IMG/VR virus record: IMGVR_UViG_3300026549_000039
Location: 82,264 to 146,263 of that record
DNA: 64,000 nt
Origin: a virus
Lineage: Duplodnaviria > Caudoviricetes
Reading direction: 5' to 3' (one strand)
Positions 2,703 through 63,901 of the stretch are shown one piece after another. How positions within the stretch are numbered: the stretch's first letter is position 1; each line of letters starts with the position of its first letter. The translations under genes and the position numbers were made by a program. The notes under the pieces were generated by a model. That model was not told the origin of the DNA. It did not search any database and saw only the letters and a list, made by a program, of their open reading frames with translations.

Positions 2703-2762
2703 TTGACAAGTGTAAGTATTTTGCTTACAATATCATTATACACCGCAAGGTGAATTTAGCAA
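2703..2762. promoter_or_regulatory. Overlapping opposite-strand promoters sharing operator 2712-2728
   Basis: + strand TTGACA(2703)-17-TACAAT(2726); - strand TTGCTA(2762)-16-TATAAT(2740); operator GTAAGTATTTTGCTTAC. Confidence 0.7.
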
Positions 2763-9455: not shown

Positions 9456-11531
9456 TTGGGCACGACAGATTTGGTGGCTAAAAGCTATAATGGTTCGAGG
9501 TCGGCGCAGATAATAAGCAGTGATATCTGCGCCTTTATTCTACTACAAGGTGGCGGAACAATCATGTCATTATCAAAGGAAACACTAGTCAGCATGGGTT
9601 ACAACACATCGTTCTCGGAAAAGATAGCAGGATATCCAGACAGGCTTTTGGAGTTGAACGGGATCTCAGACCATCAATTAGGATTGGCTCAGTTCTATGA
9701 GAATCTAATGAAGCGAACGTCTAGGCTGGCTGATACCTCGGTGGACTCTAATGCTAACGTAGGTAGCAAAACGACAGCAGCTATCCTCCAGGAGATTGAC
9801 AAGCCAAGGCAGAGGTTGTACGCATTGAATGGTATTTGGGAGTACCTGATTAAGAATGACGGGTATGAGCGTGCTGTAGAGGTAATGGACGCTATAATCG
9901 GGGGCTTGATCTACCCGCATGACTTACCACTGTTCATGTATGACCACTACTGTTATGCCTTCTCTGCTGAGAAACTCATGAAGGATGGCCTGCCGTTTAT
10001 CCCAAGGCTACCGTCTAAACCAGCCCAGCACGCACGCAGCTTCATCGCACATGTAAACCAGTTTATCCAGTTTGCGTCAAACCATCAGGCTGGTGCAACT
10101 GCTATACCTGGATTGTGGGTAGCTTATGCGTACTACGCCAAGAAGGACGGCCTCACACTGGAAGGCAGGCAGCAGGATTATCAGGAGTTCATATTTACCT
10201 GCAATCAGCCTGTTAGATACTCAGCTCAGAGCCCGTTCGTGAACGTATCACTCCTGGATAAGTACTACATGCAGGGGCAGTATGGTGATATCTACGACGA
10301 GGACGGGCGCGTTGTGGGTCACAAGTTCACCTATCCTGACGGTTCTTTACCAGACTGGAAGTTTGTGGATCAGATCCAGCGGGAATTTTATGAGTACTTT
10401 AATAAGTGTATTGATGACAATGGCAGACCTATTACCTTCCCTGTTATAACAGCGGCTATGATTAAGGACAAGAAGACTGGGATGCCTGCTGATAGGGAGT
10501 TCCTAGAGTGGTTCTGTAGCGAGAATGTCAAGCATTGTTCTGCAAACATACTTCTTAACTACGATCCGAACAACTTTGCGTCTTGCTGCCGTATGATGAA
10601 CTACACTGATCCGCTCAAGTACACAAATTCGTTTGGAGCAGGCGGAGATTCTATTGGATCTTGGGGTGTGGCCACATTGAATTTGGCCGGAATTGCAGGA
10701 GAAGGGTTGAAAAAGGACAAAACGGGCTACTCCTACTCTAAGTTCCTGTCAGACGTTAAGAAGTATGCTGATATGGCTCGCGAGATTGTGGGCATACGCA
10801 GGCATTATGTCACCCAGAATATCCAGCGTGGTCTACTTCCTCTCTTCACGATGGGGTATGTAAAGCCCGAATCGCTGTACTTAACAGTGGGTATTGTTGG
10901 GGCATATGAAGCATTGGAGCAGCTTGGCTGTTTCAGCAGGGATAGAGTTGATAACTGCCTGCATTACTATGTTGACATGCTGGATGTGCTTAATGCCGGT
11001 AACAAGGAAGCCAATGATGAGCAGACCAATACTATCTACAACCTTGAGCAGGTTCCGGCAGAGAATGCAGCTGTCAAGCTGGCTACGATTGACAGAGTGT
11101 TGGGTAGGCACGATTACCAGCTCCTGTCCAACCAGTGGCTTCCTCTATCCTACAACACAGACATCTTCTCTAGGTTGGAGGTATCTGGCGCTTTGGATAC
11201 AGCTATGTCTGGCGGCGCTATCGTTCACATATCAGCGGGGCAGGAGCTAGATGCTAACTCGATGCAGTCCCTTATAGACTATGCGTCAAAGACAGAGAAT
11301 GTCTACTTTGCTGTTAATTATATGTTTAGCTGCTGCCATGATTGCCACTCTATATCTCACTCGGCAAACACTATAGCGTGCCCAAAGTGCGGTGGGAGCA
11401 ATCTTGATAAGTTTACTAGGGTAGTAGGCTTTATTACACCCCTCGATACCTGGTCCACCCCTAGAAAGGAGGAGAAGAGGATCCAGCTGGATTTACAGAT
11501 GAAGAATTATGTAGCAGGCAGGGCAGGTTAG
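9456..11531 (+). CDS. nrdD: Anaerobic (class III) ribonucleotide reductase, no ATP cone; real start probably ATG 9564
   Basis: HDL, SCCR active site, PAE, C-terminal CHDC/CPKC and glycyl-radical motif TRVVGF. Confidence 0.92.
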   Translation: MGTTDLVAKSYNGSRSAQIISSDICAFILLQGGGTIMSLSKETLVSMGYNTSFSEKIAGYPDRLLELNGISDHQLGLAQFYENLMKRTSRLADTSVDSNANVGSKTTAAILQEIDKPRQRLYALNGIWEYLIKNDGYERAVEVMDAIIGGLIYPHDLPLFMYDHYCYAFSAEKLMKDGLPFIPRLPSKPAQHARSFIAHVNQFIQFASNHQAGATAIPGLWVAYAYYAKKDGLTLEGRQQDYQEFIFTCNQPVRYSAQSPFVNVSLLDKYYMQGQYGDIYDEDGRVVGHKFTYPDGSLPDWKFVDQIQREFYEYFNKCIDDNGRPITFPVITAAMIKDKKTGMPADREFLEWFCSENVKHCSANILLNYDPNNFASCCRMMNYTDPLKYTNSFGAGGDSIGSWGVATLNLAGIAGEGLKKDKTGYSYSKFLSDVKKYADMAREIVGIRRHYVTQNIQRGLLPLFTMGYVKPESLYLTVGIVGAYEALEQLGCFSRDRVDNCLHYYVDMLDVLNAGNKEANDEQTNTIYNLEQVPAENAAVKLATIDRVLGRHDYQLLSNQWLPLSYNTDIFSRLEVSGALDTAMSGGAIVHISAGQELDANSMQSLIDYASKTENVYFAVNYMFSCCHDCHSISHSANTIACPKCGGSNLDKFTRVVGFITPLDTWSTPRKEEKRIQLDLQMKNYVAGRAG

Positions 11532-12634: not shown

Positions 12635-12669
12635 TTGACAAAGCAGTCATGGGTAAGTATAATACTTAC
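12635..12669 (+). promoter_or_regulatory. Consensus sigma70 promoter with operator over the -10
   Basis: TTGACA(12635)-17-TATAAT(12658); GTAAGTATAATACTTAC at 12653-12669. Confidence 0.8.
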
Positions 12670-12705
12670 ATCGTCCAGTGAGGGACGGAGTATTGGGGGT
12701 TAAAT

Positions 12706-13851: not shown

Positions 13852-14290
13852 TCTGCTAAGAATAGGCAGGCGTTATATGGTACAGGCCATACATCTGGAT
13901 CCAGTATTAGTGGAGTATCCATCGCCGCCAGTACTGAATTGGATGCCTGATCTTATAGGCTGGAAGCTGGATATAGGTTTTGGAGGGACATACGTACTAA
14001 ACAGCTACATAATTGATGTATGTGCAAACCTAAAGGAGTTCCGAAAGGATAGTACCAACAAGGCACTGGCTAAGTCTAACTTAGGGCAGAATCGTTACTA
14101 CTTAACACCGGATGGGTTGGTCCAGAAGGCTGATCTTCCAGAAGGGTGGGGTCTGATTTACTACAACACTAAAACTAAGAGATGTAGAAAGGTAGTACCA
14201 GCAACGTATAGAAGTAGGTTTGATGTGGAACGCCAAGAGGGACTTTTGCTCAGAAGCGTGGCACAAAACTGCACATGGGAGGATTACTGA
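13838..14290 (+). CDS. Putative MmcB-like PD-(D/E)xK nuclease-fold protein
   Basis: PDLIGW...RYYLTPDGLV..DLPEGWGLI; catalytic ExK not evident. Confidence 0.5.
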   Translation: MKRCDLLRIGRRYMVQAIHLDPVLVEYPSPPVLNWMPDLIGWKLDIGFGGTYVLNSYIIDVCANLKEFRKDSTNKALAKSNLGQNRYYLTPDGLVQKADLPEGWGLIYYNTKTKRCRKVVPATYRSRFDVERQEGLLLRSVAQNCTWEDY

Positions 14291-14550
14291 TGGGGAGGCC
14301 AAAGAATACAATCAGCAGAGATCAAGCCAAGCCAAAGGCTGCTAATATGTACTTCCGTGTAGATAGCGAGCTGTATCAGAAGTTCTGTAAGATAGCGGCT
14401 GTTCAGAAACTGAGCACACCACGCCTTGCTAGGCTTGCTGTTGAAGAATATGTGCAGAGGAATAAACAGCTGCTACAGCTTCATGACAGTATATGGGATA
14501 GCTCAGGGAAACTGAAGCTCAATGTACCAATAGAGGCTAACTATGACTAG
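14275..14550 (+). CDS. Ribbon-helix-helix DNA-binding protein (start probably 14290)
   Basis: NMYFRVDSELYQKFCKIA...LARLAVEEYV. Confidence 0.65.
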   Translation: MGGLLMGRPKNTISRDQAKPKAANMYFRVDSELYQKFCKIAAVQKLSTPRLARLAVEEYVQRNKQLLQLHDSIWDSSGKLKLNVPIEANYD

Positions 14551-16633: not shown

Positions 16634-16701
16634 ACACTAGCAACTGTAAGTTGGGCAGGGTGCTATAGGCCTCTGCCCAACACTAAAATGGAGGTGATAC
16701 G

Positions 16702-17016
16702 ATGCCAGCTCAGGTTGATCCGAATCCAGTAACAAATCCGGGAATGGAACTGGAGTGTGTAAACTGCAAAGGAATGTTGGATGCTGGTTTGATTACTACA
16801 CCTACAGATCCGTGGATATGGCATGTTCCAGAAGGTAATGGACCCGATGGACAGGGCACAGAAGTAGGCGGGTTTGAGGACGAAGATAAGACTAGGCCAC
16901 TTGAAACTAACGCTAAGCATCCACATTGCCCTGTTTGTGGATCCCATGCTGTAAGAGTACTTAGGACTATCAATTCTGGGAGCAAGAGAGATGACAATGG
17001 AACAAGTACCCCTTAG
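16702..17016 (+). CDS. Zinc-ribbon protein
   Basis: CVNC...CPVCGS; GGAGGTG RBS. Confidence 0.65.
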   Translation: MPAQVDPNPVTNPGMELECVNCKGMLDAGLITTPTDPWIWHVPEGNGPDGQGTEVGGFEDEDKTRPLETNAKHPHCPVCGSHAVRVLRTINSGSKRDDNGTSTP

Positions 17017-22273: not shown

Positions 22274-24091
22274 ATGCCGATAGCATGTCCCATGAAAATT
22301 ATGGTTACTGTTCCTGATAAAGCTGCTCAGTTTGCTTTGCAAGCAAAAGGTGCAGAAGGTCTCCACTGGCTGGAAGACTCTACAGGTAACCCTGTTGTAG
22401 CTAAGCAAGACGGATCCTATTGGTATGCGAAGTGGGATAGCAATAAGCAAAAATTTGAGCCCGATGAACAGTTTACCTGGGAATCTAGGAAGCGTAGCCT
22501 TAAACGCAGAGGTGGTCATATAACAAGGCAGCAGACCCAACAGCATATGCAAAGCTGGACTGAGAGAATGATCGAGGGTGGTGAAGATTTTCGTAGAAAG
22601 TTCGGCATTGGGTCACCAAGATCACTAAATAAGGCCCCAATATTAAGAACACCGGGCTCACCACCACCAGCAGGGAGCATTAAACGGAAGATATCTGTTG
22701 TCTATGTTAAGTTCCAGGATAGTGCTAGTCTTAGCATAGCAGATATAACAGACGCATATATACAGGATGTATTCTTCAATAAATCAAGGTTTGGATCACT
22801 AGCCCATTACTATCACACTCAAACCCAGGGGATCATAAGCATAGAGAGTGCTGGTATATATAGAGTAACACTAAATAGTAATGCCATTGGCCTGGCAGGC
22901 GATACACTTACATCGGCAGATAATGTGAATGTTAAGACAGATTGGATAGATGCTGCTGTTGCACAGGCGCTGACGGTTGGTATGCCAACACCAGAACCTA
23001 CTGGTGGGCCCATATGTCTTCTGCATGGGTATGAATCATCCTATGGCAATGCTGACCCAAGACTACCGACACCAAGAGTCTGGGGTCATGCTTACTTCTC
23101 CGGCTCATCCATGTTTGGTGCTTATCATTATGACCTAAACACAGGAACAGCAACTCCATTTAATAATGGTATTGTTATACATGAGTGTGGTCATTGCTTA
23201 TTTGAGCTGCTAGATTTATATGATATAACACCGAGATCTGCTACACAACAACCCGACACTAAAGGATTAGGACATTGGTCTGTAATGGCAAGTGGTAGCT
23301 GGGGCTACTCAGCTGCCAATCCAAAACAAGGAGATGTACCAACAGGCCTGGATGCTTACAGTCTGTTTCAGATTAACCCTCTCATACTAGACCTAGATGA
23401 CGCTTCTGGATCTGTACAGCATACCAGTCCATATACACCTCATCTGATTAAGGGTAGGCGTGCGGAACAGGGATCACAGAAGGTTGATGAACTTGTATTT
23501 ACACAGGTGCGATGCTTTAAGGACTATGACGTTGGTATCCCTGATATGTTTGGTGGGACTGCTACACCTGGTATACTGGTTGAAGCACTCAACACTGACA
23601 GGTCCAATGTTCGTGGCTATGATGCACCCATAGCTATACTAGAGGCGCATGGGGGTACACAAAATCTACGGACTACTACTAAAGCAAACCAGAATGATGG
23701 CGATCTTGGAGACCTATTTGGTCCGACCAAAACGAGTGTTGGAAAGAGTGTAAGTGACCCTAGTGTGGAAATGGGTACCAACTTCGATATCGGATACCCA
23801 AGCCCGACTTGGACCGTAAGTGGTACAGACTGTGGTTTTGATATTGTAAACATAACAGCTGACTCTAGTTGTACGGGTAGCTATGAGATAACTTTTGATG
23901 GTACACATGACCAGGATGCCTACTATGTTGATGCCCGTGGACGCTACCAAAAAGCATCATGGGGATCTGGTGGAGGAGGTGGTGAACCAGAACCGGAGCC
24001 AGAGCCTGAGCCAACCCCACCTATACCAGCAAAGTGTGATCGACCTAGAATGTACCGACTGAGAGCTGCTACAGTTGTCACACCACCTTAA
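22274..24091 (+). CDS. M6-family (immune inhibitor A-like) zinc metalloprotease without signal peptide
   Basis: HECGHCLFELLDLYD zinc motif, GLGHWSVMASGSW Met-turn, M6 propeptide-like N-terminus, GGGG-(EP)n linker. Confidence 0.85.
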   Translation: MPIACPMKIMVTVPDKAAQFALQAKGAEGLHWLEDSTGNPVVAKQDGSYWYAKWDSNKQKFEPDEQFTWESRKRSLKRRGGHITRQQTQQHMQSWTERMIEGGEDFRRKFGIGSPRSLNKAPILRTPGSPPPAGSIKRKISVVYVKFQDSASLSIADITDAYIQDVFFNKSRFGSLAHYYHTQTQGIISIESAGIYRVTLNSNAIGLAGDTLTSADNVNVKTDWIDAAVAQALTVGMPTPEPTGGPICLLHGYESSYGNADPRLPTPRVWGHAYFSGSSMFGAYHYDLNTGTATPFNNGIVIHECGHCLFELLDLYDITPRSATQQPDTKGLGHWSVMASGSWGYSAANPKQGDVPTGLDAYSLFQINPLILDLDDASGSVQHTSPYTPHLIKGRRAEQGSQKVDELVFTQVRCFKDYDVGIPDMFGGTATPGILVEALNTDRSNVRGYDAPIAILEAHGGTQNLRTTTKANQNDGDLGDLFGPTKTSVGKSVSDPSVEMGTNFDIGYPSPTWTVSGTDCGFDIVNITADSSCTGSYEITFDGTHDQDAYYVDARGRYQKASWGSGGGGGEPEPEPEPEPTPPIPAKCDRPRMYRLRAATVVTPP

Positions 24092-24097
24092 ATAACG

Positions 24098-24138
24098 AAA
24101 AAAGAAGCACCGGCATGGGAGAAACCGGTGCTTCTTTT
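24098..24138. terminator. Bidirectional intrinsic terminator
   Basis: A6-GAAGCACCGG-11 nt-CCGGTGCTTC-T4. Confidence 0.8.
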
Positions 24139-24232
24139 AATGCGCGGCGGGAGCGCATGTCACAGAGTTTTGTAATGAAGAGAACGATAACTAGAAATGG
24201 GAACCTTGGTCAATACACGCCAACACTCGATA
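24098..24232 (-). ncRNA. Putative ~135-nt small RNA
   Basis: Perfect promoter directly upstream, no credible ORF, intrinsic terminator, hairpin loops containing UCCC. Confidence 0.6.
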
Positions 24233-24267
24233 GTAAGTATTATACTTACCTTAGTCTCAAATGTCAA
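24233..24267 (-). promoter_or_regulatory. Consensus sigma70 promoter with operator
   Basis: TTGACA(24267-24262)-17-TATAAT(24244-24239); GTAAGTATAATACTTAC identical to the 12653 site. Confidence 0.8.
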
Positions 24268-24892
24268 CAGGCTGAGTGATGTCTGTAAAGAATATGCCAG
24301 CCCTACCGGACAGCTTCTGGAAACAAAGAGCCATTACCCTTCTTATATCAGGGTGTGCATGAGGATTCTCCATACGCTGCTTGAGGATGTGCCTCCACTG
24401 CCGGACGTTGTGGGTGACAACCATATTAACTGCAAGCGCTTGTGGCAGCACAGCACGAGCAATCTGTGGTTTGACTCCAGCAGCTACCATTTCTTTGTAG
24501 GCCTGTATCGCATCCTCTATAGCATCCATCATCCTAATGCGGTCGTCGCCGTCTATACCACTAGGAAGAATACACTCCACTTCTTTACCAGCGTAGTTGA
24601 CATACCTAGTGCTCTCTACAGAGTAAGCAGAGCCGATGCGGTGCCTGGTCCACTCAGCCAACAAACCCCTGTCTATACGCACTTCCATAGTGTACGAGAC
24701 ATGCTCCAAAACAGACTCATGACCGTTCGCAATCAGGTTGGATATGAACTTCTCCTTATGTTCAATATCATTCACAGCTGAGCCGTGCGACTGGTAGCAG
24801 GTTCGGCCTGCATAGTTGATGGTGTCAATAGCTTCCATGTACGTCATAGGATGAATCAAATCAGCGGCATACTCTACAAAGTGAACAGACAT
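24257..24892 (-). CDS. thyX: FAD-dependent thymidylate synthase
   Basis: GHESVLEH, RHRIGSAYSVESTRY, ARAVLP. Confidence 0.93.
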   Translation of the reverse strand: MSVHFVEYAADLIHPMTYMEAIDTINYAGRTCYQSHGSAVNDIEHKEKFISNLIANGHESVLEHVSYTMEVRIDRGLLAEWTRHRIGSAYSVESTRYVNYAGKEVECILPSGIDGDDRIRMMDAIEDAIQAYKEMVAAGVKPQIARAVLPQALAVNMVVTHNVRQWRHILKQRMENPHAHPDIRRVMALCFQKLSGRAGIFFTDITQPVDI

Positions 24893-24911: not shown

Positions 24912-24939
24912 GTAAGATGTATGCTTACATATTATAGCA
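24912..24939 (-). promoter_or_regulatory. thyX extended -10 promoter with downstream operator
   Basis: TGCTATAAT then GTAAGCATACATCTTAC, then GGAGG RBS. Confidence 0.65.
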
Positions 24940-63341: not shown

Positions 63342-63901
63342 TCCCTTTATTAAATTTTAGATAAAATGTGTATATGACTGCATTTTACCCTTGCGCAGTC
63401 AAGCAAGCCGCTACAGTATTTTTATTGCCTTCTTTTCGATTGTCAATCTACTAAAATCTAGTCATAGACTAGACTTATAAAGCGCTTGCCCGCCTGCTTT
63501 CGCGGGCTTGTGTTGAGTGTTCTCTCGAACACAGATATATTATACTTTGCTTTTTTCATCTTGTCAACATCGATAAAATCCAGTCATAGCAACTGTTCAT
63601 GGGGATTTTTTCCATTTATGGGCCTGAAACGTATACATCCGCGTAAGTGCTTTGTATTACTGTGTTTATGCCAATCTTTCGTTATGAATGCTGATTATGA
63701 CTGTATTTGTCGTGAATGCTGATTATAGCCTGATTCTCTTGTGGTGTATGCTTGCTAGTGATTGATATGACTGGATTCTACGGATCGCTGAATGTCTCTA
63801 CTATTATATATTGCTTTCCATTCCTTACAGGATATATTTTATCCTTGCGAGTGTTTGATACAGCTTTATTTACGCCGTTTTTATATCTTTCTACTATATA
63901 C

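Follow-up and report, generated by a model that had tools for sequence, protein, structure and literature searches.

A candidate operator-controlled small RNA unit at the thyX 3′ end of an uncultured phage

What is known of regulatory RNAs encoded by phages comes, to our knowledge, largely from a few model phages that infect E. coli, Vibrio or Staphylococcus. Small RNAs of the 3′UTR type can arise from promoters embedded in coding sequences, as in the case of DapZ (PMC13501541). The Rsa RNAs of Staphylococcus aureus have a signature composed of a 5′ hairpin, an unpaired UCCC within the most conserved region and a terminator (PMC2790875). Among phage RNAs, PreS of lambda, VpdS of VP882 and StxS have targets shown by experiment, and most of them are Hfq-dependent (PMC12197685). 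Here we describe a cleanly delimited RNA candidate in a 146-kb uncultured phage clade, whose putative operator is held in common with thyX and with operons for DNA metabolism.

The DNA analysed (the window) is the final 64 kb of a 146,263-bp IMG/VR virus record, which is classed as linear and about 86% complete. Between about 2.8 and 24.1 kb, the plus strand encodes functions of DNA and nucleotide metabolism, including a nucleotide kinase, an anaerobic ribonucleotide reductase (NrdD), a methyltransferase and a UvsX/RecA-like recombinase. The minus strand, read from about 63 kb to 24.9 kb, encodes a terminase, a portal protein, a head protease, a virion structural protein that is likely the capsid protein, and large proteins that are probably tail proteins. 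The two blocks meet head-on at 24092-24256, between an M6-peptidase-like gene and thyX (Table 1). Past 24098, transcription of the minus strand would be antisense to the plus-strand operon; the first minus-strand ORF there to match a protein family is an HU-like gene at 12518-12156. Neither Phage_integrase nor HTH_3 (CI/Cro-type repressor) domains were found in the record, itself 86% complete, and a search for tRNA and tmRNA genes found none.

Relatives of the locus were located by ThyX protein search among contigs of ENA/Logan metagenome assemblies, one sample being labelled bovine. This label, together with the NrdD-type reductase gene (9456-11531, plus strand), points to an anaerobic host, possibly from gut or rumen. 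When 185,579 species genomes of GTDB were searched for the host, the portal protein gave no relative and the promoter-operator pattern described below gave no match. The contigs fall into four allelic lineages of thyX together with the unit that follows it: A (the window and L014), B (L015, L016 and L030-L039), C (L017, L018 and L026-L029) and D (L019). The other collections yielded no close relative. GenBank phages yielded no DNA match, only distant ThyX matches and no M6-like protein. In IMG/VR, the thyX scan returned only relatives of 43-47% identity, neither the M6-like protein nor the promoter-operator pattern was found, and a scan for the 18-mer described below gave two chance matches in coding sequence. 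The P2 pattern had one chance match, also in coding sequence, among JGI metagenomes.

Table 1. Features of the convergent junction and of the promoters sharing its palindrome (window coordinates).
Feature	Position	Strand	Remarks
M6-peptidase-like gene	22274-24091	+	last plus-strand gene of the operon; weak match, 21.9 bits against a cut-off of 22
thyX (FAD-dependent thymidylate synthase)	24257-24892	-	Pfam Thy1, E 2e-47; last minus-strand gene; stop TGA at 24259-24257
P2 -35 hexamer TTGACA	24262-24267	-	inside the final three thyX codons (V-D-I)
P2 -10 hexamer TATAAT	24239-24244	-	17-nt spacer from the -35
17-bp palindrome GTAAGTATAATACTTAC, putative operator	24233-24249	-	covers the P2 -10
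Predicted transcription start (A)	24231	-	placed by its distance to the -10
5′ stem-loop SL1, predicted	24201-24228	-	GAGU pairs with GUUC around a lineage-specific inner hairpin
UUCCCAU motif	24197-24203	-	UUCCC(A/U)U in all four lineages; about +16 to +35
Pyrimidine-rich linker	24159-24200	-	sequence and length differ between lineages
Small hairpin AUGCGC-UCCCGCC-GCGCAU	24140-24158	-	
Intrinsic terminator, 15-bp stem	24098-24138	both	bidirectional; U6 on minus, U4 on plus
P1, TTGACA-17-TATAAT with palindrome GTAAGTATAATACTTAC over the -10	12635-12669	+	operator 12653-12669; predicted to drive plus-strand DNA-metabolism genes
thyX own promoter, extended -10 TGCTATAAT then operator GTAAGCATACATCTTAC	24912-24939	-	extended -10 at 24939-24931; operator at 24928-24912
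Fourth operator-bearing promoter, TTGACA-17-TACAAT with GTAAGTATTTTGCTTAC in the spacer	2703-2731	+	operator 2712-2728

The original prediction placed a perfect TTGACA-17-TATAAT promoter across the 3′ end of thyX. Such a promoter, here called P2, is indeed present on the minus strand and matches the consensus at 12 of 12 positions; the complete 146,263-bp record contains three sites of this quality. The third of them, at 63539-63567 on the minus strand, lacks the palindrome discussed below. Its leader of about 200 nt includes the hairpins GTGTTC-GAGA-GAACAC and GCCCGC...GCGGGC as well as a second TTGACA, and the small ORF that follows begins around 63331. At P2 the predicted start is a purine, 8 nt past the -10 in lineages A-C and 7 nt past it in D and at P1 (A/G/A/A/A among the lineage sequences, A at P1). 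The -10 is TATAAT except in lineage D, where it is TAAGAT. The -35 hexamer is invariant throughout the four lineages although the Val/Leu and Asp codons within it have synonymous alternatives, and the ThyX tail encoding it, P[VLI]D[IM] followed by the stop codon, is found only in lineages that bear P2. The C-terminal tail of ThyX (window 24257-24270; proteins P0001-P0006 and P0121-P0154) is overprinted by the P2 -35 hexamer. Natural tail variants ending in PLYI or PLNI cut the hexamer to five of six matches. As expected for an sRNA derived from a 3′UTR, a promoter embedded in the last codons of the parent gene is thereby predicted in all four lineages.

The same promoter carries a palindrome that recurs elsewhere in the genome. 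P2 had been said to share sequence with the promoter at 12635 (P1), and an identical 18-mer, GGTAAGTATAATACTTAC, does occur at 24250-24233 (minus strand) and 12652-12669 (plus strand). These are its sole two exact copies in the record, against an expectation of about 0.05 matches even with three mismatches permitted. The half-site pattern GTAAG-N7-CTTAC is present at four exact sites in the 146-kb record, each of them at a promoter, and no site with one mismatch exists; by our own estimate, based on ten fixed bases, about 0.14 exact sites would be expected in 146 kb. The two further sites belong to the promoter of thyX itself, where the operator begins two bases past the extended -10, and to a promoter that has the palindrome in its spacer. 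At the thyX promoter, six lineages, some of them without P2, could be compared: the half-sites are invariant, the N7 spacer varies and the layout is kept. A dimeric DNA-binding protein would be expected to leave just such fixed half-sites around a free spacer. P1 with the identical 18-mer is retained in a lineage-C contig (L040:4769-4803). At P2 the palindrome is whole in lineages A-C, with one arm change in C (ATGCTTAC); lineage D keeps the ACTTAC arm, its left arm being degenerate. Conserved half-sites, a free spacer and several promoters are all found here, as in a repressor-operator regulon. The claim of operator control is thus strengthened by the four exact sites, all at promoters, and by the constancy of the thyX-promoter half-sites, and we infer with good support that P2 is operator-controlled. 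By the same comparisons, GTAAG-N7-CTTAC appears to define a small regulon made of a kinase arm, the P1 DNA-metabolism arm, thyX and the short RNA. The P1 leader (window 12670-12705; L040:4804-4839) opens with AUCG, as the P2 RNA does; its 5′-proximal hairpin differs by lineage (GUCC/GGAC versus CCAGU/ACUGG).

Conservation is concentrated at the two ends of the unit. All four lineages keep TTGACA, the 17-nt spacing, the -10, the ACTTAC arm, UUCCC(A/U)U and a 3′ hairpin, and the first 12 or so transcribed nucleotides are likewise kept in A-D, as a purine start followed by UCGAGYG. From the -35 to about +20, lineage A is 76-86% identical to B and to C, beside 41-46% identity at the third-codon positions of thyX between lineages, a disparity that indicates purifying selection on the P2 promoter and the RNA start. 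The 3′ half of the RNA is near-identical in A and B. This likeness reflects recombination and is therefore not independent evidence of conservation. In one contig of lineage B (L030:8893-12711), a B-type thyX with 74% nucleotide identity lies between A-like flanks; the 3.8-kb alignment that includes thyX is 91% identical, the 120 nt upstream of thyX differ at three positions, and the 3′ part of the RNA has hardly changed. There, thyX and the 5′ half of the RNA behave as an exchangeable cassette, with breakpoints near the thyX operator and inside the RNA (window about 24170 and 24900).

The RNA predicted from P2 extends for 134 nt, from the A at 24231 to the U6 tail at 24098, and for 75-135 nt in relatives. 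Some 135 nt free of any credible ORF had been claimed, and the analysis agrees: the 134 nt contain no credible or conserved ORF, and no conserved frame emerged when ORFs were compared across lineages. The fold has a predicted energy of -39.7 kcal/mol (z about -4), most of it contributed by the hairpin at 24158-24140 and by the terminator. A predicted 5′ stem in which GAGY pairs with the GUUC of GUUCCC is common to the folds; in A and B an inner hairpin lies within it, and in C it closes directly. All four outer pairs of SL1 can form in every lineage. In these models the stem is compatible with the variation between lineages; covariation is uninformative because three of the four pairs never vary, the remaining one switching from U-G to C-G. 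The CC(A/U)U of UUCCC(A/U)U and the ensuing pyrimidine-rich stretch are mostly unpaired in the folds of A-C; in D the CCC is paired.

The original prediction had laid stress on three UCCC motifs. All three are present in the predicted RNA, and at least three occur in 1.6% of dinucleotide shuffles, which makes the count by itself only mildly unusual. Only UUCCC(A/U)U is conserved, however; the two loop motifs are not kept. The loop of the hairpin at 24140-24158 reads UCCAGCC in most contigs of lineage B and the hairpin is missing from C and D, while the terminator loop differs in C and D from that of the window. The Rfam search suggested at the outset returned no family match in the window at gathering thresholds, RsaE and other Firmicute sRNAs included. 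In E-value mode the best match was ncr1015, which scored 28 bits where 60 would be required, and the weak matches lie mainly over the terminator. The RNA is a single-copy element, neither the genome nor the distant relatives having yielded a second one.

On this evidence we tentatively favour, with slightly less than even confidence, the view that the unit specifies a repressor-controlled, independently transcribed non-coding phage RNA of the 3′UTR type, and hence a candidate sRNA. P2 would function as a sigma-70-type promoter that a dimeric repressor occludes when bound to GTAAG-N7-CTTAC. When free, P2 would direct synthesis of a non-coding RNA of about 134 nt, ending at the terminator used in common with thyX. 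Since the operator is carried by the thyX promoter and by two promoters for DNA and nucleotide metabolism as well as by P2, all four would be switched together. Most likely the RNA would act through its C/U-rich stretch or its conserved 5′ end, either of which could base-pair with purine-rich ribosome-binding sites on mRNAs of the host or the phage. The original proposal of a separate RNA unit is upheld insofar as the sequences describe an independent promoter-to-terminator unit, lacking coding potential and under purifying selection. It is a good candidate for a new phage sRNA family, albeit of a known kind of RNA. Against an sRNA we count the poorly conserved RNA body, lineage D, in which the 3′ hairpin is not followed by a U-tract and the CCC is sequestered, and the ThyX relatives of 51-69% identity, which do not have the unit.

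The terminator raises the question of a role at the junction itself. The U6 terminator attributed to the RNA exists, but it is not private: it is bidirectional. On the plus strand the hairpin folds at -21.9 kcal/mol (z -5.4) and is followed by U4. On the minus strand, 24138-24098 is the sole terminator after thyX, so that, as in sRNAs derived from 3′UTRs, the RNA and the parent mRNA would have a common terminator. The predicted structure thus appears to end the short RNA, thyX and the convergent plus-strand gene at 22274-24091 alike. In lineage C another hairpin takes its place, and three of the pairs are compensatory.

It is conceivable, though we consider it unlikely, that the unit acts in cis at this convergent junction. 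Pairing of the terminator hairpin with the 3′ end of the plus-strand operon mRNA might alter the stability of that mRNA, in the manner of 3′-overlapping antisense RNAs; alternatively, firing of P2 might stop read-through of the plus-strand operon into antisense thyX. P2 does face the end of the operon that spans 12.7-24.1 kb, with the bidirectional terminator common to both, every lineage retains some 45 nt of overlap, and the RNA body varies freely between conserved ends, as expected if the body were irrelevant. There are also parallels in lambda OOP (PMC12197685) and in RNA II of par(pAD1), which has a bidirectional terminator (PMC7472228). As in these systems the orientation is convergent, and, as in par, the bidirectional terminator provides complementarity (PMC12197685, PMC7472228). 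Here, however, the overlap is limited to the terminator and stops short of coding sequence, and any convergent pair of transcripts sharing a terminator has such an overlap; the locus contains neither a toxin-like ORF nor direct repeats. Moreover, action in cis leaves the conservation of +1 to +12 and of UUCCC unexplained. The absence of any small hydrophobic toxin ORF within 24092-24260, on either strand, led us to reject an antisense RNA of a type I toxin-antitoxin pair. A terminated leader of the lambda PR′/6S type was also rejected: beyond the terminator the minus strand is antisense to the plus-strand operon, and no same-strand ORF with a family match precedes the distant HU-like gene.

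The distribution of conserved positions could also mean that only the DNA matters. P2 would then serve as an additional high-affinity operator and promoter, titrating the repressor or RNA polymerase or setting local topology, with the RNA as a mere by-product. The -35, the -10 with its palindrome and the first transcribed bases are indeed the best-conserved parts of the unit, the remainder varying between 75 and 135 nt. Nonetheless, UUCCC(A/U)U is conserved in all four lineages and the 3′ hairpin is always retained; furthermore, a pure operator needs no perfect -35 overprinted on coding sequence. We regard this explanation as improbable.

The more distant relatives suggested yet another origin for the unit, as a relic, namely the promoter and leader of a lost gene that formerly followed thyX. 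ThyX relatives with 69%, 58% and 51% identity have other tails and no P2-like promoter at the thyX end; what follows thyX in these 51-69% relatives is either a plain terminator or further genes. Among those with 51-58% identity, one has a same-strand ankyrin-repeat gene after thyX (L020:4639-6039) and another has same-strand small genes, including ones for He_PIG-domain proteins (L021:4673-7893); the RNA unit is absent from both. Although such genes are what a relic would call for, these relatives are without a promoter at the thyX end, and a consensus promoter is retained in lineages whose synonymous sites are near saturation, so that we judge a relic very improbable. Least credible of all is a micro-mRNA for a small peptide: a 26-codon ATG frame (24158-24078) does recur in A and B, but no Shine-Dalgarno sequence precedes it, it extends across the terminator, its tail depends on how long the T-run is, and C and D lack it, no other frame being common to the lineages.

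Returning to the candidate sRNA, its possible partners were sought among phage mRNAs. The terminator loop is complementary over 10 bp to CAUGGGAGGA (14274-14283), at the ribosome-binding site of a gene (14290-14550; 86-residue product) that had been called a ribbon-helix-helix (RHH) gene, and a feedback switch with the repressor had been considered possible. The complementarity exists, but it is at chance level: helices at least that strong were found at 19 of 222 candidate start regions, versus 14.3 +/- 4.2 for shuffled RNAs. Nor is it kept in relatives, as would be expected of anti-Shine-Dalgarno pairing by a UCCC RNA. In lineages B and C the corresponding site reads ACAGGAGGA, and yet B retains the identical loop. 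As for the gene, it has no Pfam match, even at E 10, which leaves the RHH identity unsupported. We have rejected the feedback idea on these three grounds.

Other searches were equally sparing. Exact complements of the conserved motif, taken as a seed, were absent from phage start sites and showed no enrichment there. An ungapped-helix scan of some 18 neighbouring genes in three lineages revealed no common target. RNAduplex with long windows returned unrealistically low energies, and its top match was a 12-bp helix such as chance would produce; the top strong-helix target was discarded since it falls in a spurious internal ORF. Nucleotides 5-12 of the RNA (AGUGUUGG) are complementary to CCAACACU, which lies about 25 nt before the start, at 16702, of a gene for a 104-residue protein. 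Lineages A, B and C all retain the site (window 16672-16684; L026:18187-18194; L030:18151-18158), but the lineage-B RNA is mismatched to it; the pairing is probably due to chance.

A fuller version of the favoured reading can be formulated, and we consider it rather doubtful. The RNA would be a riboregulator within a regulon of one operator and four promoters, released together with thyX and the DNA-metabolism genes, and its UUCCC and pyrimidine stretch would mask G-rich ribosome-binding sites of host or late phage mRNAs. If this were true, the RNA would found a new sRNA family and form the RNA arm of the early programme of a large uncultured phage whose host is anaerobic. Expression alone would already imply a compact system, with one operator, four promoters and one RNA, for coupling nucleotide metabolism with post-transcriptional control. 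Should the RNA not be expressed, the locus would still offer a useful case in which a promoter overprints a protein's C-terminus. As judged from the relatives, the promoter-operator part of the original prediction is stronger than could have been known at the outset, whereas its "UCCC loops" and RHH feedback fail the comparison.

How, then, does the P2 RNA relate to described systems? With lambda PreS, VP882 VpdS and StxS (PMC12197685) it would have in common that it is a short phage RNA with a host-type promoter and an intrinsic terminator. StxS and lambda 6S lie upstream of same-strand late genes, which the P2 RNA does not (PMC12197685). The likeness to the Rsa RNAs and RNAIII of S. aureus extends to the 5′ hairpin, the C-rich UCCC motif in the most conserved part and the 3′ terminator, and makes Shine-Dalgarno pairing plausible, by analogy, for the P2 RNA (PMC2790875). 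Here, in contrast, a single conserved motif straddles the 3′ side of a stem and no Rfam model matches. The resemblance to UCCC sRNAs of Firmicutes would accordingly concern mode of action rather than membership of the class, given the lack of homology, the one conserved motif and the lack of a conserved target pairing. Closest in layout are 3′UTR sRNAs of the DapZ type, which likewise have a promoter in the end of the parent gene, a terminator common to the parent mRNA and a short non-coding product (PMC13501541). The P2 RNA differs from them in being phage-encoded and without sequence relationship, and in the palindromic operator that stands both on the promoter of the RNA and on that of the parent gene.
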